Source of the DNA: Planctomycetota bacterium
Lineage (GTDB): Bacteria; Planctomycetota; UBA1135
Length of the DNA: 61,992 nucleotides
NCBI GenBank assembly: GCA_049609225.1
Contig: JBMYYH010000003.1
Coordinates: 1-61,992 of the forward strand
Reading direction: 5' to 3'
Every line of letters starts with the position of its first letter. Position 1 is the stretch's first letter. Both the position numbers and the translations under genes were made by a program. Below are positions 39,850 through 58,443 of this stretch, one piece after another. Under the pieces are notes generated by a model. It was not told the DNA's origin. It worked only from the letters and a program-made list of their open reading frames with translations, and ran no database searches.

Positions 39850-42648
39850 ATGAAGATCCTCGACCGCTCCGTTTACCTCGGGCCTAGCCTCTACGCCCAT
39901 TTCCCGGTCATTCGCATGACCATGGACCTCGAGGAGCTCGAGGATTGGCCGACCGCCAAGCTCGGGGATGGTTTCATCGACGCCCTGCTCGACGCCCTTC
40001 CTGGTCTAGCGGAACACGGTTGTAGTTATCGCGAAGCCGGCGGATTCGTCCGACGCATGCGCGAAGACGAAGGCACTTGGATGGGGCATGTGTTCGAGCA
40101 TGTCGCGATCGAACTGCAGAGCATGGCTGGCAGTCCGGTGTCCTTCGGCAAGACCCGCAGTAATGGCGAGTACGGTCAATACGATGTGGTCTTCCAGTAC
40201 GAGTCGGAAGAGGTCGGGCTTGAAGCCGCGTCCTTGAGCATGCGTCTGCTGCAGCATCTCCTTCCGGAGAACCTGCAGCCGGAGTCGATCCGCAACGAGG
40301 AGTTCGATTGGGAAGACGAGCGTGATTCCTTCATCCGCTTCGCCCAACGGCGCGCCCTCGGCCCGTCGACCGCATCCTTGGTGCGCGCCGCGGAAGAGCG
40401 CAACATCCCCTGGATTCGCCTCAACAAGTACAGCCTGGTGCAACTCGGGCATGCTTGTTATGGCAAACGCATCCAGGCGACGATCACTTCGGAGACGCGT
40501 CACATCGGCGTGGAAATAGCTTCCGATAAGGAGGAGACCAACAAGCTGCTCGCTGACCTCGGCCTGCCGGTCGCGAAGCAGGGGCTGGTCTATTCCGAAC
40601 GTTCGGCGGTGCGCACCGCCAAGCGCATCGGCTTCCCAGTCGTGATCAAACCGCTCAACGCCAATCATGGCCGCGGTGTTTCGATCAATCTGAAGACGGA
40701 TGAGGAAGTGCAGACTGCTTTCGAGAACGCGCGCCTGCATAGCCGTGCGGTCATCGTCGAGAGTTTCCTCAGCGGTTTCGATCACCGCCTATTGGTGGTG
40801 AATGGAACTTTGGTCGCCGCATCGAAGCGCGTGCCGGGTCACGTGGTCGGCGATGGCAAGAAGACCATCGAGGAGTTGATCGAAGTCGTGAACCAGGATC
40901 CACGTCGTGGTATCGGTCACGAGAAGGTCCTCACCAAGTTGGAGCTCGACTATCAGGCCAATCGCCTGCTCGAGCTCAAGGGCTTCACCAAGGATGACGT
41001 CCCGGAAGAGGGCAAGGTGGTTTACCTGCGCAGCACCGGCAACTTGTCCACCGGTGGTACCGCCGTCGATGTCACCGACCTGCTCCACCCCGACAACCGC
41101 TCCATGGCGGAACGCGCCGCGCGCGCCATCGGCCTGGATGTCTGCGGTGTCGACTTCCTCACCGACGACATCTCCGTCAGCTACAAGGTTGGTGGCGGTG
41201 GCATCTGCGAGGTCAATGCCGCACCTGGATTCCGCATGCACGTCGCGCCTTCCGAAGGCACGCCGCGTGATGTGGCTGGTCCGGTGATGGACATGCTGTT
41301 CCCGGAAGGGTCGCCGTCGCGCATTCCGATCTGCAGCATCACCGGTACCAACGGCAAGACCACCACCGCACGGATGGTGTCGCACATCTTCAAGATGACC
41401 GGCAAGGTGACCGGCCTCACCACCACGGATGGCGTCTACATCGATGGTCACCTCACGGTGAACGGCGACATGACCGGACCCGCGTCGGCGCGCATCGTCT
41501 TGCGCGACCCGAAAGTGGAAGTGGCAGTGCTGGAAACCGCACGTGGCGGTATGTTGCGTCGCGGTTTGGCTTATCGCAGCTGTGATGTCGGCGCGGTCTT
41601 GAATGTGCAGGCCGACCACCTCGGCTTGAAGGGAGTGGATACTCTCGAAGACCTGGCCAAGGTCAAGCGCATCGTCGCGGAGATCGCGAAGGATACGGCG
41701 GTCCTCAACGCGGATGATCCGCTGTGCTTGCAGATGGCCGACCACACGCGGTCGGAGCATCTTTGCTACGTGACCATGAACAGCTCGCACCCCTTGGTGC
41801 GCGATCACATCCGCGCTGGCGGACGTGCCATCGTGCTGGAGCAGGGTATGGGCGGCATGATGATCACCATCTACGACAAGGAGCAGCACATTCCTTTGTT
41901 GTGGGCGCACATGATTCCCGCCACCCTCGACGGACGCGCCTTGCACAACGTGCAGAATGCGATGTTCGCTGCAGGTATCGCCTTCAGCATGGGTGTGGAT
42001 CTTGAAGAGATCCGCCACGGCTTGCGCACCTTCGACACCAGCTTCTTCCAGGCGCCGGGCCGCATGAACATCTGCGATGACCACCCCTTCAAGGTCATCA
42101 TGGACTATGGCCACAACCCTGCCGCGGTGAAGGCCATGGTGGAGTTGAGCGTGCGTTTGGAGCCTAAGGGCAAGCGCATCTTGGTGCTGGCAGCGCCGGG
42201 CGATCGTCGGGATGAGGATGTGCGAGAGATCGCAAGCCTCTGCGCTGGCAAGTTCGATCACTACATCTGTCGTCGCGATGATGGATTGCGCGGGCGTGAG
42301 TCGGATGAGATTCCGATGATGCTGCGCGAACAGTTGATGGCCGATGGAGTGCCGTCGGATGCCATCGAGATGATTCCTGATGAAGAGGCAGCCGTCGACC
42401 ATGCCCTCAACATGGCGCGGAAGGATGACCAGGTGCTGATCTTCGTCGATGCGATCGGACGCAGTTGGCGTCAGATCCAGGAGTTTCAGTCGGATGAAGC
42501 CGATGCTTCCACCGAGGATGCGCATGCTCCACATACGGTGGATCTCGGCGCCTTCGGCAGCTTTCAGGACCTAGGTCTCGACAACGAAGTCGAACTGATC
42601 CGTGACGAACGTGGAGTCCGTATCGCCGCCAGCGAGGAAGCTGACTAG
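39850..42648 (+). CDS. cphA: Cyanophycin synthetase (CphA1 architecture: N, G and M domains)
   Basis: N domain HGCS...GGF...HVFEH; LGPST; ATP-grasp KPLNANHGRGV, NLSTGG, EVNAAPG; Mur-like TGTNGKTT, ETARGG, DHLG, PGR, DYGHN. Confidence 0.97.
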   Translation: MKILDRSVYLGPSLYAHFPVIRMTMDLEELEDWPTAKLGDGFIDALLDALPGLAEHGCSYREAGGFVRRMREDEGTWMGHVFEHVAIELQSMAGSPVSFGKTRSNGEYGQYDVVFQYESEEVGLEAASLSMRLLQHLLPENLQPESIRNEEFDWEDERDSFIRFAQRRALGPSTASLVRAAEERNIPWIRLNKYSLVQLGHACYGKRIQATITSETRHIGVEIASDKEETNKLLADLGLPVAKQGLVYSERSAVRTAKRIGFPVVIKPLNANHGRGVSINLKTDEEVQTAFENARLHSRAVIVESFLSGFDHRLLVVNGTLVAASKRVPGHVVGDGKKTIEELIEVVNQDPRRGIGHEKVLTKLELDYQANRLLELKGFTKDDVPEEGKVVYLRSTGNLSTGGTAVDVTDLLHPDNRSMAERAARAIGLDVCGVDFLTDDISVSYKVGGGGICEVNAAPGFRMHVAPSEGTPRDVAGPVMDMLFPEGSPSRIPICSITGTNGKTTTARMVSHIFKMTGKVTGLTTTDGVYIDGHLTVNGDMTGPASARIVLRDPKVEVAVLETARGGMLRRGLAYRSCDVGAVLNVQADHLGLKGVDTLEDLAKVKRIVAEIAKDTAVLNADDPLCLQMADHTRSEHLCYVTMNSSHPLVRDHIRAGGRAIVLEQGMGGMMITIYDKEQHIPLLWAHMIPATLDGRALHNVQNAMFAAGIAFSMGVDLEEIRHGLRTFDTSFFQAPGRMNICDDHPFKVIMDYGHNPAAVKAMVELSVRLEPKGKRILVLAAPGDRRDEDVREIASLCAGKFDHYICRRDDGLRGRESDEIPMMLREQLMADGVPSDAIEMIPDEEAAVDHALNMARKDDQVLIFVDAIGRSWRQIQEFQSDEADASTEDAHAPHTVDLGAFGSFQDLGLDNEVELIRDERGVRIAASEEAD

Positions 42649-42680
42649 TCCCCCGACCGGTCCGAGAGGAATCTAGCGAC

Positions 42681-44429
42681 ATGGAGCAGCCGACCCCAAA
42701 GCGTGAGATGCGCGATTCACGCCGTCTCACTGGACCGAACGTGATTTGGCATCAGCCAGGTCCAGTCATCGACATCGCCCTGGCAGAGGATGAGGCGGAA
42801 GCCGCACGTCTGGCATGGGAGGAGGCGGTGACTGCTTTGATGGAAGGCGTCGGATGGGGAGAGGAGAGTACGGCCTATCGCAAATTCCCCGGTGGTTTGA
42901 GCCTGGCATTTAGCGCACCCATGGATGCACTTTATGCAGCTTGTGAAATGAATGAATGGGCTTGGGCTGCAGCTGAGGCAAAGCTGGATGGCCAGCCAGC
43001 ACCGGATCTGACGGAAGCGATCGATCGCTTCAAGATGGAGATCCGCAAGGAATCAAACCGTCCGTTGTTGCGCCTCCAGAAGGCAGCGATGAAGCGTGGC
43101 GTCTTGTTCCTGACCGACGACGACGATGTCTCCGTCGGTGCTGGGCGTTACTCCGAATCCTGGCCGGTCAAGCGCCTGCCGGAAGCGGGGGAAGTGGATT
43201 GGGCTGCACGTCAGCGCATTCCAATCGCCATGATCACGGGCACCAACGGCAAGACCACCACGGTGCGCTTGTTGAAGGCCATGGTCGAGGCGCAGGGCAA
43301 GGTCCCCGGTCTCAGCTCCACCGATTGGTTGATGGTCGGCGACAAGATCCTCGACCGCGGCGATTGGGCGGGCCCGGGTGGCGCACGCAATATCCTGCGC
43401 AATCCTCATGTCGACATCGCTTTGCTCGAGACGGCACGCGGCGGCATGTTGCGGCGCGGACTTGGCCTTGCTGCAGGGGAGGCAGATGTCGCGCTGGTCA
43501 CCAACATCGCCGAGGATCATCTCGGAGAGTGGGGCATTCAGGATCTCGACATGTTGGCGGACACGAAGTTCATCATCCGCCACGCCGGCAAGCGCCTGGT
43601 GCTCAATGCCGACGACCCCAAGTCGGTCGAACGCAAGCACCTGGTCACCGTTCCGATCACTTGGTTCGGGCTCAATGCCCAAGACCCACTGATGCAGGAA
43701 CACCTCAACGCCGGTGGCCATGCCGCCATGCTCGATGATGATGCTCTGTGGTGGAGTGCCGAATGCCAAGCGCACAAGCTCCTTGCCGTCGACGAGATCC
43801 CCATCACCTTGGGTGGCGCGGCGCGTCACAACATCTCCAATTGCCTCGCTGCCATCTGCGTGGCCAAGTCGCTCGGTCTAGCCGAATCCTCGATTCGCGA
43901 CGGCCTGCGTAACTTCCAGAGCAATTCCGCCGACAACCCCGGCCGCCTGAACCTGTTCGACTTCGCCGGCCTGAAGGTACTGGTCGACTTCGCGCATAAT
44001 CCGCATGGCCTCGAAGCCCTGTTCGAAATGGCGCGTGCGATGCAGCCGAAGCGCAAGTTGGTTACCGTCGGACATGCCGGTGACCGCAGCGATGCATCCA
44101 TTCGCGAGGTGGCCATCACCGCGTGGGAGAGTGGGGTTGATCGCCTCATCATCAAGGAGCAGGATCAGCATCTGCGCGGCCGCGAAGCCGGCGTCATTCC
44201 GCAGATCATGCACGAAGCCTTGATCAATCACGGTACTCCCGAAGATGCCATCGGTCGTGCCGATAGCGAGCTGGAGGCCACCGTGCAGGCCCTGGAATGG
44301 GCCGAGCCTGGCGATCTCCTGCTGCTACTCACCTTGCAACAACGCAACGAAGTCCTGCAGTTGTTGGATGGCCTGCATGCCCGCGGCTGGCAATCAGGCC
44401 AAGCATTGCCGGACATCACCGTCCGCTAA
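42681..44429 (+). CDS. CphA-related Mur-ligase-domain protein lacking the ATP-grasp domain
   Basis: N-terminus resembles the CphA N domain; TGTNGKTT, ETARGGMLRRGL, EDHLG, LNADD, NPGR, DFAHN, GDR; no ATP-grasp motifs. Confidence 0.85.
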   Translation: MEQPTPKREMRDSRRLTGPNVIWHQPGPVIDIALAEDEAEAARLAWEEAVTALMEGVGWGEESTAYRKFPGGLSLAFSAPMDALYAACEMNEWAWAAAEAKLDGQPAPDLTEAIDRFKMEIRKESNRPLLRLQKAAMKRGVLFLTDDDDVSVGAGRYSESWPVKRLPEAGEVDWAARQRIPIAMITGTNGKTTTVRLLKAMVEAQGKVPGLSSTDWLMVGDKILDRGDWAGPGGARNILRNPHVDIALLETARGGMLRRGLGLAAGEADVALVTNIAEDHLGEWGIQDLDMLADTKFIIRHAGKRLVLNADDPKSVERKHLVTVPITWFGLNAQDPLMQEHLNAGGHAAMLDDDALWWSAECQAHKLLAVDEIPITLGGAARHNISNCLAAICVAKSLGLAESSIRDGLRNFQSNSADNPGRLNLFDFAGLKVLVDFAHNPHGLEALFEMARAMQPKRKLVTVGHAGDRSDASIREVAITAWESGVDRLIIKEQDQHLRGREAGVIPQIMHEALINHGTPEDAIGRADSELEATVQALEWAEPGDLLLLLTLQQRNEVLQLLDGLHARGWQSGQALPDITVR

Positions 44430-49469: not shown

Positions 49470-52400
49470 CTAGTGCGCTTTCTCCCAGGCGTCGAGGATC
49501 TTGCGCAGTTCCGAGTACGTCGGCACGCCGACATTCAACGCCAGGATGTTGCCATCGGCATCGGCGAGGATGTAACCAGGCGTCAGGTCACTGGGCTTCT
49601 CTTCTTCGCCACGGTGCATGATCGTCCCGATCAACAGGTCCTGTAGCTTCTTGTACTCTTCGATGTCCGCGTCGGTGCGATCGAGCAACATCTTGAATGG
49701 TGGCGCATAGGTTTCGGCATAGCGCAGCATGTCCTTCTTGGAATCACCGTCGTTGTTGTTGAAGCCGAGGATCTCGAGTTCACTGGACGGGAAGTTGCGC
49801 TTGATGCTGGCCAAGACTGGGGCCGAGCGCTTGCATGCCATGCAGCTCGTGAACCAGGTCGTGAACAAGCGATACTTCGCTTCGGTCTGATCCGCGCCGA
49901 GACGCTTCAACAAGGGGCTCTGTGCAAGCGCCTTGGGAGCAGGCTTGGACTGATTGCGGGTGTAGGCATTGGTGCGCAACGGCTCCAACACTTCCACCTC
50001 AAACCCCAAACCATTCTTCGACTCCGACGGGTTCTCGAACACGGTAACGACTTGACCTTGGCGAACCTCACCGATTTCGGTGATGGAGCCGTTGGGCCAA
50101 AGCACCTGCACGTTCTCGGCCACGGAGTTCGCACCGATGCCGATGGAAAGCGTGCTGCTGTTCTGTGCACCGAGGCCTTCGCCGCAGCGGTACTCACGCA
50201 GGATGTTCATTGCGCCTGCGGTCAAACGGACTTTGGCGCCGAGGCCGTCGCGCGAACCCCAGGTGTCCGAAGGTTGGGCCGATTGGTTACCACCCTGGAA
50301 ACGGAACATGACCGGCATCTGACGCTCTCCTTCCGGAGTCATGTCACCCATCTTGTTGCGATAGATCTGCGTCAGAGGACGGTTCGCACCCATGAGAATG
50401 AAGTCCTGGTAGCCGTCGTGATCGTAGTCGAACAAGGCCATGGAGCGACTGTCGCCCTTATGGTCGGCACCGGAGATCGCAGTATGCACGGCGAAGTCCT
50501 TGCCTTCCTTGTTCATGAAGAGGTGGTTGATTTCCTTGCCGGAGAAGGATGCGCCGGAGTCCAGGTCGGCCGTTTCGATGCTGACGTCGAGGCTTGCACC
50601 GGACTTGATGTCTTTCGAGTTCTTGCGCACAACTGTGCGCCAGAAGTTACTTCACAAGTCGACATCGCGCTTCTCTTCTTGCGGCGCGGTGTAGTAACCC
50701 GCGGGCGCGTAGATGTCGAGCCAACCATCGTTGTTGAAGTCGGCGAACTGCGCACCCCAACACCAACCGGCCTTCTCCACCACGTGCATGGGGCTGCCGA
50801 CTTCCGAGACCTTCTCCCAGGCATAACCCGGGCCTTCGTTGCGGAACAAGGAGTTGCCGCGACCGAGCTGTTCGATCAACGGATCCACGCCTTCGCCCTG
50901 CAGCAGCGCGGCATCGTAGTTGGCGCGTCCGACCGTGAAGAAGGAAGTCACACGACGCGCCGCCTTGGAGAACATGTTGGCGACATAGAGGTCTTGGAAA
51001 CCGTCGTTGTCGTAGTCACCGAAACTCACGGCCATGCCGAAGCCGATGTCCTCGACCTGCGAGGCGTCCGTGATGTCGACGAAGGTGCCGTCGCCCTGGT
51101 TCTGGAACATGAAGTTCGGAGCGAAGTCGTTGGCGACGTACATGTCGGGGTCGCCATCATTGTCGAAGTCGGACCAGGTGGTCTGATACGAGTTGTAGAA
51201 CAGGCGCAGGTTTTCCGCTTCCGGAGCCGGCGCGAACTTTCCGTTGCCGAGGTTGCGTAACAGAATGTTAGGCGGGCCCGGGCGGTTGGTGTGCAAGCCT
51301 TGGTTCGCAGCTTCATAGGCAACCAGGGATTCGAGCTCTTCCCAATCCGGTTGCGCGAGATACTTGCGCAGTGCAGTGATGGCACCCTTACCCTTCCGCT
51401 CGCTCTTGCTCTTGCCACCCAAGGCGGCGAATGCGCGGTTCACGAAGAACGCGGCATAAGTGGAACAGTAGATGTCGTTTAGACCATCGCCGTCGTAGTC
51501 GACGATCGAGATCGAAGAGGTGTGATAGGGGAGATCTGCAGCAGCGATCCAATCTCCCGTGCGATCGACGAAACGTCCATCGACATTCTCCATCACCATG
51601 CTGCGACGCAGGGCGCCACCGAGGAAGAGGTCGAGGTCGCCGTCGTTATCGAAGTCGGCGAAGGCTGCGGAGGACGTCTTGCCGTCGATGTCGAGGCCAA
51701 GGTCAGCGCCGATCTCCTCGAAGGTGCCGTCACCGCGGTTATGGAAGAACAGGTTCTTGCCCTGGCGCTCCATGATGTAGAAGTCATCCCAGCCATCCTG
51801 ATCGTGATCGACCACGCTGACGCTTGGATGACGTTCGGCCGACACCAACTGCCAGCCGTCGTAAGGTGCTTCGAACTTGTTGCCTTCACGTGTGGCCTGC
51901 AAGGATTCCGTCACCATGTCCTCGTGCAAGGACCGACGTGCGAGTTCACGCACATTTCCATCCGGAATGACCTGATCGAGCACTTCCTCGAACAGCCAAT
52001 CTTCGGTCTCATTGATCGACAAGGAGGTGACTTTCCAGCTGGAGCAACGCCAGTTCTGGTCATCGGGGTTCTCTTCGTCGTAGTCGGCCGGATCGAGATC
52101 CCAAATGGTTTCGTTCCAACCACTGATGGCCGCCAGCTTGCCGTTCTTCATCTTGGCCTTCGCGACGAACATCAGGCTCGCCTTCCACTGACGCATGGTG
52201 TTGGGATCAACCCACTCGGGCACCGGCAGGTGGATCTTGAACTTGGCTTTCTTGAAGTAATCGACCTGCGCAAGCAGATCCTCGAAGGACCGGAACTCCT
52301 GGTAATCGACGCCGCCGTCACCGCCATCCAACTTCACCAGGATGGGTTGGGTCGGAGACTCGTCGGTAACCAGCTCCTGGAAGACGAAATCGTCGGTAAA

Positions 52401-52625
52401 CAGCTCGGCGCAGAGTGGGCCGGGCCATTCCATGCCCTCCATGGCGCGCCCAAGATCCTTGAGCTTGCCGGTCTTATTCCAGGACAGGAGCAGCGCCTCT
52501 GAACGCAGCATCCGTTCGGTCTGGATCTCGAGGGGTGTGGCGGGGGCCGATGGACCTTCGGAGCATCCCATGAGGACACTCAGGCCGAGGGGCAGTGAAA
52601 TTGCGAGAAAATGGCGGAAAGCCAT
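49470..52625 (-). CDS. FG-GAP/ASPIC-UnbV (CRTAC1-like) lipoprotein with a C-terminal thioredoxin-like domain; interrupted by an in-frame TGA at 50652-50654 (candidate Sec658). The ORF track splits it into 50652..52625 and 49470..50630
   Basis: Lipobox LMG-C; DxDxDGxxD repeats on both sides of the TGA; ASPIC-like RDGLGAKV...GEGLGAQNS...IGIG...WPNG; WFTSCMAC; both halves are in the same frame. Confidence 0.75.
50620..50645 (-). promoter_or_regulatory. Candidate bacterial SECIS element
   Basis: UGA-AGUAAC-UUCU-G-GCGCAC-[AGUU]-GUGCGC-A-AGAA; the loop starts 17 nt after the UGA and has G at its second position. Confidence 0.7.
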
Positions 52626-54427: not shown

Positions 54428-55042
54428 TTGCCTGATCCCGACCAAGCGCTCGTCGAAGCGTGCCAAAAGGCCGATGGACAGGATTTCGAAGAGGCCTATC
54501 GCCAGCTTTTCGTTCTTTACCAAGACAGGGTCTACACGATCTGCCTCCGTGTCGCTGGCAACCAAGAGGATGCCCTAGATGCGGCTCAGGAGACGATGGT
54601 GACCCTTGCACGCAGGATCAAGGATTTTGCTTTTCGCAGTCGCTTCTCTTCTTGGGTCTACCGCATTGCCGTCAACGCGGCGATCGACTCCCGCAGACGC
54701 AGACTCGATGCACCTCGCGCTGGGGTCCAGACCACCGTCGGCAATGCCGAAGGGGACCGTCAGCTGCAACAGGTAGCTGCGGAAGAAAAGCATGCGGATC
54801 CTGTGCAAGAACTCGCCCGTACCGAGAACCAAGAGCTCATTCAGGATGCTCTTGGGCGTATGAATCCCAAGTTCGCCGCGTTGCTCGTCCTTCGATACAT
54901 CGAGGGCCTTAGCTACGAGGAGATTGCCGAGGTTCAAGAATGCAGTCTCGGCACCGTGAAATCCCGTCTAAGTCGAGCTCATGGCTCGTTGAAGGAGTTC
55001 CTTCAACACCGTGGCTTCGATCCCTCTGAACTGTCCCCCTGA
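54428..55042 (+). CDS. ECF sigma factor (RpoE-like)
   Basis: DAAQET, FSSWVYRIAVN, GLSYEEIAE...GTVKSRLSRA; TTG start. Confidence 0.93.
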   Translation: MPDPDQALVEACQKADGQDFEEAYRQLFVLYQDRVYTICLRVAGNQEDALDAAQETMVTLARRIKDFAFRSRFSSWVYRIAVNAAIDSRRRRLDAPRAGVQTTVGNAEGDRQLQQVAAEEKHADPVQELARTENQELIQDALGRMNPKFAALLVLRYIEGLSYEEIAEVQECSLGTVKSRLSRAHGSLKEFLQHRGFDPSELSP

Positions 55043-56640: not shown

Positions 56641-56706
56641 GCGTTTTAGGGTTAGGTGACGCCAGCCTGGGCCGCAAATGGGTCACCCAAATTCCATTGG
56701 CCCATC

Positions 56707-58443
56707 ATGCTTGCCACCCTTCCTGCAATTCTCCTTCTAGCGGCTCTTCAGGAGCCGTCCTCGGTTCCCGGTGCCTATCGTGGCCCCGAAGACGAGACTC
56801 TATTGGAGTTCGTTTCCCACGGCAGTACCGCCGGGGGAACCGGCTCTCCAGGTCAGATCATGCATCCCTTTACAGGCGGTTGGGACCGCTGGGAGTTCTG
56901 GTTTGAACACGAGCGCGACGTCCTTTTCCGTGGTGAACCCGATTTCCCTGCCCGCGCGGTCAATGACCGAGGTACCTATGGCACCGAAGATTGGGCCGTC
57001 GAGCGCCAGGACCTGCTCCTGACCTCGATCCCACTGCTTATCGACGCCCTGGATTCCGATCTCCCCGCCGTGCGTGAGGCTGCTGCCCTGTCGCTCGGAC
57101 GCATCGGCTACTCCTCCGCAGACTTCTTCCTGCAGCGCGCGACGCAGGACAAGGTGGAATCGGTCCGTCAAGCTGCGTACATGGGCCTCGGACTCATCTC
57201 CTCCGAGCCTGGTGTCAGCTTCCTGGTGGAGGTCTTTGAGGAGGATCACGATGCCTCCACCCGCGCCTTTGCCGCTCTCGGCTTGGGCCTCTCCGGCCGT
57301 GTCGAAGCTGGCTCCGCCCTGAAGGTCTACCTCAACAGTGTGCTCTACGGTGAGAGTTGGAACTCCGACGAGGACCTCACTTTGGCAGCCATGGTCGCTG
57401 CCGGTGTGCACGGTTCGCACGACTTCACGCCGCTGTTGATGAGCTTGCTGGAGGCGACTTCCAAGAAGAAGGGCAACCACCGCTTGGTTTCGGCCGCGAT
57501 CCAGAGCCTTGGCGCTTTGCAGGATTCGCGCGCCCGTCCGATGCTCGAGGAGATGCTCCAGAGCAAGGGCGATCGTATCCCAGAAGCTGCTGCCCAAGCA
57601 CTCGGACGTCTCGGTGACCGCGCCGCCGTCCTCGCCTTGGCCGACATCTACCAGGAATCGCACGACACCCGTCTGCGTTCCTACAGCCTCCTGGCGATGG
57701 GACGTCTGGGTGGACGCCAGGCCGAGGTGAAGCTGAAGGAGCTGCGTCCGGAGAAGAAGGAAGAGGAGAGCATCCACGCTTCCTGGGCTTTGGCCGCCGG
57801 CATGTGCCGCCTGGATGGTGCTTACCCACAGCTGGTTTCGACTCTGCTTTACGGCACCGATGACCGTGAGCATGAAGAGGACCGCGCGCCGCGTCGGGAT
57901 GAAGAGGTGCTGCGTGGTGCTGCCGCGATGGCGCTCGGACTCTACGGTGCCCCTGGTGCCAAGTCGCAGATCTCCTTGTGCCTCGATGCCGACGGTGTCG
58001 ACCCTTCCTTCCGCGGTTATCTGGCCATGGGCCTTGGCATGCTCGCCACCCACCCGGCGGATGAGCTGCTGCTGGAGCTGGCTAAGGATCGTGAAGCACC
58101 GATTCAGACCCGTCGCGGTATCGCTGCCGGTCTGGGACGCAGTAACTCGGAGCGCACCAGCGTCGCATTGGTCGACATGCTGATTCGCGACCAGGACGAC
58201 AGCGTCCGCTGGGCTGCATCCCGCGCCCTTGCGACCTCCCGTTCGACCGCCGCACTGCGTCGCCTGGCGCAGCAGTTGCGCACCGAACTGGACCGCAAGG
58301 AGCACGATCCGCAGACTGCGCACTTGGTCCTCGGGTTGGGCTTCCTGGGCGACGCCCACGATGGAGCCACCATCTCTAGTATGTTGGCTGGTATGGACTT
58401 CCGTCAAGAGAGCCGCCTTCTGGTGGCCCTGCGAAAGTACTAA
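56707..58443 (+). CDS. Secreted HEAT-repeat protein
   Basis: Repeats VREAAALSLG, VRQAAYMGLG, AAQALGRLG, VRWAASRALA; signal-like start MLATLPAILLL. Confidence 0.88.
   Translation: MLATLPAILLLAALQEPSSVPGAYRGPEDETLLEFVSHGSTAGGTGSPGQIMHPFTGGWDRWEFWFEHERDVLFRGEPDFPARAVNDRGTYGTEDWAVERQDLLLTSIPLLIDALDSDLPAVREAAALSLGRIGYSSADFFLQRATQDKVESVRQAAYMGLGLISSEPGVSFLVEVFEEDHDASTRAFAALGLGLSGRVEAGSALKVYLNSVLYGESWNSDEDLTLAAMVAAGVHGSHDFTPLLMSLLEATSKKKGNHRLVSAAIQSLGALQDSRARPMLEEMLQSKGDRIPEAAAQALGRLGDRAAVLALADIYQESHDTRLRSYSLLAMGRLGGRQAEVKLKELRPEKKEEESIHASWALAAGMCRLDGAYPQLVSTLLYGTDDREHEEDRAPRRDEEVLRGAAAMALGLYGAPGAKSQISLCLDADGVDPSFRGYLAMGLGMLATHPADELLLELAKDREAPIQTRRGIAAGLGRSNSERTSVALVDMLIRDQDDSVRWAASRALATSRSTAALRRLAQQLRTELDRKEHDPQTAHLVLGLGFLGDAHDGATISSMLAGMDFRQESRLLVALRKY

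Follow-up and report, generated by a model that had tools for sequence, protein, structure and literature searches.

A reverse-strand gene in a 61,992-nucleotide (nt) stretch of a Planctomycetota genome (contig JBMYYH010000003.1 of assembly GCA_049609225.1; the whole stretch is referred to here as the window) is interrupted by a single in-frame TGA and appears to encode a large selenoprotein. The favoured explanation, held with good confidence, is an exported CRTAC1/ASPIC-UnbV protein of 1051 residues with selenocysteine (Sec) at UGA codon 658, a putative relay through a CxxC motif, and a family that extends over several phyla. Decoding of this UGA as Sec by the standard bacterial route is, as a claim on its own, held more firmly still and regarded as very likely, the evidence for recoding being such as ordinarily suffices to predict a selenoprotein with high confidence. 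The putative family has been traced in Planctomycetota, Verrucomicrobiota, Acidobacteriota and a Gemmatimonadetes metagenome-assembled genome (MAG).

The in-frame UGA codon and its conservation

A single frame is common to the upstream open reading frame (ORF) at 50652..52625 (-) (657 aa, ATG start) and the downstream ORF at 49470..50630 (-) (386 aa, GTG start), and the original prediction, made from the sequence of the window, that one TGA interrupts this pair was confirmed at positions 50654-50652. Translation with the TGA taken as U reproduced the 1051-residue read-through product with Sec658 that had been proposed, with residue 658 as the sole recoded codon (context ...KRDVDL-U-SNFWRTVVRKNS). 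General reassignment of TGA was rejected, as selA and other genes of the genome are without internal stops and the window gene's own terminator is TAG, not TGA.

Breakage of relatives at the same point is apparent in protein databases. A search with residues 560-800 returned 921 relatives, the best 120 of which were listed and 119 of these (P0003-P0121) scored: 32 break off immediately after D-x-D-[LV], 86 run to full length and show a sense residue at the column (N in 78, A in three, E and S in two each, Q in one) and one is without the motif. Names of the cut-off proteins among these best 120 of 921 relatives include 'VCBS repeat-containing protein' for products of 625-717 aa, and in an alignment of 29 relatives all 22 close protein clusters stop exactly before the Sec column; a homologous-protein search with residues 640-900 gave no match at E 1e-10.

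At the nucleotide level, 105 of 151 genomes from the same order yielded a match when searched in six frames; among the 150 matches listed (87 further), 20 are stop-free and 130 contain TGA, 128 of them exactly once, one twice and one together with a TAG. A scan for the codon at the Sec column, covering the 30 best loci, another 60 TGA matches and the 20 matches of the order that are free of stops, gave 87 TGA, 16 sense codons (E in eight, A in four, and D, H, S and N in one each) and one spurious match; removal of stretches containing N left 86 distinct 60-mers with TGA in one column. Across the phylum, 49 of 201 genomes matched, with TGA in 73 of 84 among the matches listed. Among 80 loci scanned in named genomes the column holds TGA in 18 and a sense codon in seven, the other 55 being unscored (a relaxed pattern gave spurious matches only in 13 and none in 42). 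The 18 TGA loci belong to Akkermansiaceae, Verrucomicrobiales, Roseibacillus, a Gemmatimonadetes MAG, Bryobacterales, Vicinamibacteria, Pyrinomonadaceae, an Acidobacteria MAG, Phycisphaerae, Mariniblastus, Pirellulaceae, Candidatus Multivorans, Planctomycetota MAGs and one further bacterium. Neither TAA nor TAG was found at the Sec column among the fetched sequences (the 86 distinct stretches and the 18 loci of other taxa), which bears out the expectation that a true Sec site would keep TGA and would not drift to other stops.

Translation is predicted to continue through the TGA, since the residues right after it are invariant in TGA and sense forms alike: S659, F661, W662, R663 and V665 are unchanged in 31 of 31 aligned sequences (26 TGA and five sense forms). 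With a Ser codon directly 3′ of the TGA, no start codon can lie between, and database fragments of the downstream half have no fixed start, opening anywhere from 7 to 30 residues past the column, often at a GTG or ATG inside the hairpin described below. The possibility of a faulty read or assembly, raised in the original prediction, was addressed with contigs of three public runs, which cover the TGA and show no difference there, one run representing a ~94%-identical relative. Runs X1, which may be the source sample, and X2 show no differences, and X4 shows 17, none of them in the TGA or hairpin.

Sense residues at the Sec column are, overall, N, E, A, S, D, H, Q and G, and almost never Cys. 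A profile search of 1.84 billion representatives recovered 153,768 proteins at E ≤1e-3 and 11,082 at ≤1e-30. Its best 150 matches comprise 71 full-length sense forms, 37 downstream fragments and a remainder without the column, and the 71 sense representatives carry E (31), A (11), S (11), D (6), N (4), Q (3) and C, M, R, T and G (one each). Only two Cys forms were seen, L204 (TGC; one of 99 non-Sec sequences with complete C-termini) and P0166 (one of the 71 representatives). Homologs had been expected to carry either TGA or Cys at this site; the first half of that expectation held, and the second did not, the usual counterparts being Glu, Asn, Ala and Ser.

The window copy is one of four TGA-bearing paralogs in its genome, the others being a tandem pair on contig 35 (locus L116, 1181-4228 and 4486-7704 (-)) and a single copy on contig 1 (locus L117, 1092-4190). 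The tandem pair is also present in sister genomes G052, G062, G048, G028 and G071. In protein P0016 (1076 aa) the post-TGA half of one paralog runs stop-free into the pre-TGA half of the next and ends ...DVDL, representing either a natural fusion of tandem neighbours or a gene-calling artefact. A second in-frame TGA occurs in some distant members (G123:C30, G206:C129, G238:C126, G259:C53 and G236:C57), which may mark either a second Sec site or a pseudogene.

The downstream hairpin and the selenocysteine machinery

A hairpin resembling a Sec insertion sequence (SECIS) element had been predicted at 50645-50620, with its loop 17 nt from the UGA, a G at loop position 2 and the GTG start of the downstream ORF buried in the stem; each of these features was recovered, the GTG (position 50630) falling inside the 3′ arm (Table 1). 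In the bacterial SECIS (bSECIS) model set out in section 5 of PMC13188914, the loop spans 3-9 nt, the stem at least 4 base pairs (bp), a G stands in the first two loop positions, the spacing is 16-37 nt and the minimum free energy (MFE) is -7.5 kcal/mol or lower. Loop length, loop G, spacing and MFE were scored as four criteria from this source, and the window hairpin lies within all of them (4-nt loop, G at position 2, 17-nt spacing, -9.4 kcal/mol; 6 bp), as do 69 of the 86 TGA stretches compared with four of 16 non-TGA stretches.

Three pairing registers account for the 86 TGA stretches: 64 belong to a first, with a 5-nt loop centre, 15 to a second, with a 4-nt centre and including the window, and seven are shifted by 3 nt. 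The 6-bp core of the first register is paired in 383 of 384 cells, a share that is partly circular since the register classes were defined by pairing, so that only compensatory changes and non-TGA controls count as independent. Three pairs of this register are changed on both sides (GC 36/AU 27; GU 32/AU 23/CG 7/GC 2; CG 61/GC 3), with a covariation score of 0.227 compared with 0.126 for shuffled data (reached in none of 500 shuffles) and 0.016-0.142 for slid partners; in the second register four pairs are changed on both sides. These RNA pair changes accompany differing amino acids (R-R-V-T, R-Q-V-V, R-H-V-V and R-E-V-V). Among the 16 non-TGA paralogs with the same protein motif, a full 6/6 stem was found in one in the first register and in none in the second. 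Pairing of the lower stem is largely absent from the first register and only partly preserved in the second; conservation of the hairpin, which had been named as a test of the Sec proposal, therefore holds for the covarying upper 6-bp stem and not for the lower one. The commonest loops in the family are CGUGA, GGUCG and GGUC, on similar GC stems, and an Rfam search of the stretch gave a chance-level match only (IS1222_FSE, E 1.5, 14.5 bits against a gathering score of 45). A Glu paralog on contig 19 of genome G148 (loci L045/L206) has GAG at the Sec column and a complete 6-bp hairpin in register, with the CxxC lost (DxxS), and may represent a recent TGA-to-sense change.

The window genome encodes SelA (E 6.3e-123), SelD and one tRNA-SeC among 40 tRNAs, and the C-terminal wing domain of SelB was found in a 644-aa frame, so that selA, selB, selD and tRNA-Sec, for which a search had been proposed, are all present. 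SelA occurs in 146 of 151 genomes of the order, which agrees with Sec use but cannot tell carriers from non-carriers. The selD gene of the window genome (contig 108, locus L003, ~4.4-4.6 kb) has one in-frame TGA of its own (context ...YAASSG-TGA-AAKLPQ), with an apical hairpin (GCGCA-GGUCU-UGCGU) ~32 nt past it whose GC-rich stem and GGUC-type loop are like those of the family; judged from this arrangement, SelD is probably itself a Sec-containing protein.

Domain architecture and the CxxC motif

The protein consists of an N-terminal domain, an FG-GAP propeller, an UnbV_ASPIC domain and a ResA/TlpA-like domain, an architecture of the CRTAC1/ASPIC-UnbV kind (Table 1). The propeller is recognised by Pfam FG-GAP_3 (E 4.4e-41, five stretches, 139.7 bits against a cut-off of 26.9) and FG-GAP (E 7.7e-25); its best sequence match in the PDB is murine CRTAC1 (9etn_A, E 3.4e-8), and that of the C-terminal domain is ResA (E 6e-4 over residues 895-987). 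An AlphaFold2 model built from a 31-row alignment (mean predicted local distance difference test (pLDDT) score 86.5, predicted template modelling score (pTM) 0.83) has 9etn_A as its top Foldseek match (E 4.9e-23, TMt 0.73), and its C-terminal domain matches ResA 1su9_B (TMt 0.64). Pfam and the model both place the TGA within the FG-GAP region, in agreement with the original view that the stop falls inside a propeller, and residue 658 forms the N-terminal end of a helix (657-667) on the propeller in the model. The column of the putative lipobox residue Cys21 holds Cys in 16 of 26 aligned TGA forms, and similar lipobox-like N-termini are found in many relatives; the protein is thus probably exported and lipid-anchored.

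Table 1. Positions of the gene and of its predicted features in the window
Feature	Position	Strand	Basis or remark
Whole gene	49470..52625	(-)	1051 codons and TAG stop; one in-frame TGA taken as read through
Signal peptide with lipobox-like L-M-G-C (Cys21)	52563..52625	(-)	Read from translation; probable lipoprotein export signal
FG-GAP beta-propeller region, ~residues 265-760, spanning the Sec codon	50346..51833	(-)	Pfam, AlphaFold2 strands, Foldseek
In-frame TGA, proposed Sec658	50652..50654	(-)	Same column in homologs; N-terminus of helix 657-667 in model
SECIS-like hairpin	50620..50645	(-)	Lower stem, G/A mismatch, upper stem, loop; fold and covariation
Hairpin, lower stem UUCU/AGAA	50645-50642 paired with 50623-50620	(-)	
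Hairpin, upper stem GCGCAC/GUGCGC	50640-50635 paired with 50630-50625	(-)	6 bp
Hairpin, loop AGUU	50634-50631	(-)	4 nt; starts 17 nt past UGA, G at loop position 2
UnbV_ASPIC domain, residues 794-860	50046..50246	(-)	Pfam PF07593, E 1.8e-11, 44.2 bits against cut-off 23.4
ResA/TlpA-like thioredoxin-fold domain, residues 895-1051	49473..49943	(-)	PDB sequence match and Foldseek
CxxC motif, C928-M-A-C931	49833..49844	(-)	Both Cys in 38/38 TGA forms vs 3/99 non-TGA forms

The motif WFTSCMAC noted in the original prediction is present, its cysteines being C928 and C931, and its occurrence follows that of the TGA. When all sequences with a complete C-terminus were aligned from the Sec column onward (38 TGA and 99 sense forms), W-x-x-x-C-x-x-C with both Cys was found in every one of the 38 TGA forms and in three of the 99 sense forms, which otherwise carry SxxC, AxxC, DxxS or other variants. 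Among the best 150 profile matches, CxxC is present in 36 of the 37 downstream fragments beginning after the Sec column, taken as TGA forms, and, by a cruder pattern, in seven of the 71 full-length sense representatives, one of the seven being the Cys form P0166. A scan of 26 TGA and 52 sense full-length proteins for columns with one residue in at least 88% of the first group and at most 25% of the second returned only seven: K130, L311, P648, U658, S695, C928 and C931. A DsbD_TM protein (a CcdA/DsbD-type membrane protein) is encoded in the window genome, and proteins of this type are the usual electron source for ResA/TlpA-type domains.

Neighbouring genes in the window encode cytidine deaminase, an extracytoplasmic function (ECF) sigma factor, HEAT-repeat proteins and cyanophycin-synthetase-like products, and are uninformative for function. 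At 39850-44429 (+), a gene resembling cyanophycin synthetase (Cyanophycin_syn, ATP-grasp and Mur ligase domains, 932 aa) precedes a second gene with a Mur ligase domain (582 aa). The ECF-type sigma factor at 54428-55042 (+) and a HEAT-repeat protein at 56656-58443 (+) lie a few kb upstream on the opposite strand, and no link of either to the selenoprotein gene was seen.

Proposed mechanism, competing explanations and significance

In the proposed mechanism, SelB carrying Sec-tRNA(Sec) would recognise the GC-rich 6-bp hairpin, with its loop starting 17 nt past the UGA, and insert Sec at codon 658. From its position at a helix N-terminus on the propeller, the selenolate might react with an extracytoplasmic oxidant or substrate; the fused CxxC domain, as its co-occurrence with Sec suggests, may then resolve the oxidised selenium, and a CcdA/DsbD-type protein could re-reduce the CxxC, by analogy with what is generally known of ResA/TlpA proteins. 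That the selenol serves an extracytoplasmic redox enzyme as its reactive centre, recycled by the CxxC and in turn by a CcdA/DsbD-type carrier, is given an even chance. The original suggestion of an enzyme that re-reduces itself is supported indirectly by the co-occurrence of Sec and CxxC (38 of 38 TGA forms, three of 99 others), the relay being an inference. The broader proposition, an old multi-phylum family of exported propeller selenoenzymes whose Sec has essentially no Cys ancestry and is paired with a fused ResA/TlpA-like CxxC domain, is placed slightly below an even chance.

Explanations that dispense with Sec are poorly supported. A single in-frame stop in a draft MAG of 182 contigs could suggest a pseudogene lesion or a fault of assembly or sequencing; this was rejected, with a probability close to nil, since the same TGA column recurs across many genomes, in 86 distinct stretches and 18 loci of other taxa, the contigs of three public runs concur and both halves are conserved as protein. 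A conserved programmed stop is also very improbable: here the product would be a 657-residue N-terminal lipoprotein, the rest being made by occasional read-through or separate initiation and the hairpin serving as a pause or regulatory element. Gene callers and NCBI do annotate the shortened form, and bacterial Sec insertion is inefficient, so that a shortened product probably exists too. However, the break falls inside the propeller region and is always TGA, never TAA or TAG, in the fetched sequences; the residues immediately past it are invariant; called downstream starts vary over the 7-30 residues past the column; a matching SECIS-like hairpin occurs in the genome's own selD; and the Sec machinery is present. 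The main rival accepts Sec and assigns it another role, as a soft-metal or metalloid ligand that, with the two CxxC thiols, might form a cell-surface binding site for Hg, Cu, As or Se species. Sec and CxxC would together supply three soft ligands, the Glu, Asp, Asn, Ser and His found at the column in non-Sec homologs typically serve as metal ligands, here on a Ca-binding FG-GAP scaffold, and several selenoproteins catalogued in Table 1 of PMC13188914 bind metals. This role is nonetheless considered unlikely, as Ala and Gly also occur at the Sec column, the C-terminal domain is like ResA-type thiol-disulfide reductases and unlike metallochaperones, and no metal-resistance genes adjoin the gene among its window neighbours.

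Beside the partial circularity of the pairing registers, several observations weigh against the favoured reading of a Sec-containing redox enzyme. The near-absence of Cys counterparts is atypical for selenoproteins. Matches of the C-terminus to Pfam AhpC-TSA (21.9 bits) and Redoxin (19.2 bits) are both below the cut-offs, and this weak similarity (PF00578/PF08534) sits on a domain that does not hold the Sec. Confidence of the structure model near the site is moderate, with mean pLDDT of 80 for residues 651-660, 68 for 661-670 and 46 for 671-680. The linker at residues 886-895, ahead of the CxxC domain, likewise has pLDDT under 50. The single-sequence fold energy of the hairpin is unremarkable (z-score -0.96 for a 71-nt stretch, 30 of 200 shuffles being as good), and raw MFE over 45 nt gives no separation of TGA from non-TGA stretches (means of -12.5 and -13.9 kcal/mol, respectively); since fold energy does not discriminate, the significance of the hairpin derives from comparison of register, covariation and non-TGA controls. 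The Sec-CxxC association, moreover, rests on few independent events: in an unrooted FastTree phylogeny of 137 tails with the trait columns removed, in which gain and loss are not distinguishable, the Sec state changes at least four times and CxxC at least five, and of four independent contrasts ~3 run in the same direction and none in the opposite (sign test p at least 0.25). There are also exceptions to the association, the Glu form L123 retaining CxxC and the Cys form L204 being without it.

Likenesses to several known systems can be recognised. The window protein resembles CRTAC1/ASPIC-UnbV proteins (9etn) in having FG-GAP and UnbV_ASPIC domains above Pfam cut-offs and in its best PDB match by both sequence and fold, but differs in the apparently recoded UGA within its propeller, an additional domain at the N-terminus and the C-terminal CxxC thioredoxin-like domain. 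This last domain is like ResA/TlpA reductases in its thioredoxin fold with W-x-x-x-C-x-x-C and in the presence of a CcdA/DsbD-type protein in the genome; in contrast to those reductases, it is a fused domain of a 1051-residue protein, falls below Pfam cut-offs and has a motif that is degenerate in non-Sec homologs. Mammalian thioredoxin reductase, as an example of an enzyme with an intramolecular selenol/thiol relay, and fused reductase-thioredoxin proteins offer a further parallel. The logic proposed here is the same, a reactive Sec recycled by a dithiol elsewhere in the protein, but there is no sequence or fold relation, and the window relay is suggested by co-occurrence only. With SECIS-decoded genes of the fdhF/selD type the window gene shares a UGA-then-hairpin layout within the bSECIS limits of PMC13188914, and the presence of selA, selB, selD and tRNA-Sec in the genome. 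It differs from these selenoproteins in that its Sec falls outside UxxC, CxxU and the other catalogued motifs and lies on an FG-GAP propeller rather than a thioredoxin fold, and in that Cys homologs are nearly absent.

The architecture had been thought to lie outside the classical selenoprotein families, and catalogues agree. Table 1 of the 2026 review PMC13188914 lists 119 prokaryotic selenoprotein families, with no FG-GAP, UnbV or CRTAC1 entry among them, and the terms FG-GAP, ASPIC, UnbV, propeller, VCBS and Planctomycet have no occurrence in the text of that review; the relevant family terms are likewise absent from the texts of PMC12013277, PMC2398784 and PMC9312934. No NCBIfam family model matched the window protein. 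A literature search found no paper tying Sec to FG-GAP, ASPIC, UnbV, VCBS or CRTAC1 in the portions of the sources covered; the selenoprotein list in Table S9 of PMC4807772 and a groundwater-MAG study cited in PMC13188914 may contain such genes. The window gene very probably belongs to a large bacterial family missing from recent selenoprotein catalogues, and is otherwise a predicted SECIS-decoded bacterial selenoprotein with unusual features. Selenoprotein discovery has leaned on Cys/Sec pairs (PMC13188914, section 6), and alignment of the Sec here with Glu, Asn, Ala and Ser could explain the omission of the family.

If the favoured reading is correct, a propeller Sec with a fused CxxC domain would constitute a new catalytic architecture, adding a beta-propeller, non-thioredoxin scaffold to selenoprotein biology and providing a first chemical handle on the function of bacterial CRTAC1/ASPIC-UnbV proteins. 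The strict pairing of Sec and CxxC across domains makes an extracytoplasmic selenol-thiol relay a directly testable hypothesis. A blind spot in discovery through Cys/Sec pairs would be exposed, and genome annotation would be splitting or shortening a large selenoprotein family which, with up to five matches scored per genome, may be among the most abundant in these phyla. Figures for the selenoproteome size of marine Planctomycetota and Verrucomicrobiota, and with them those for selenium demand, would then have to be revised.

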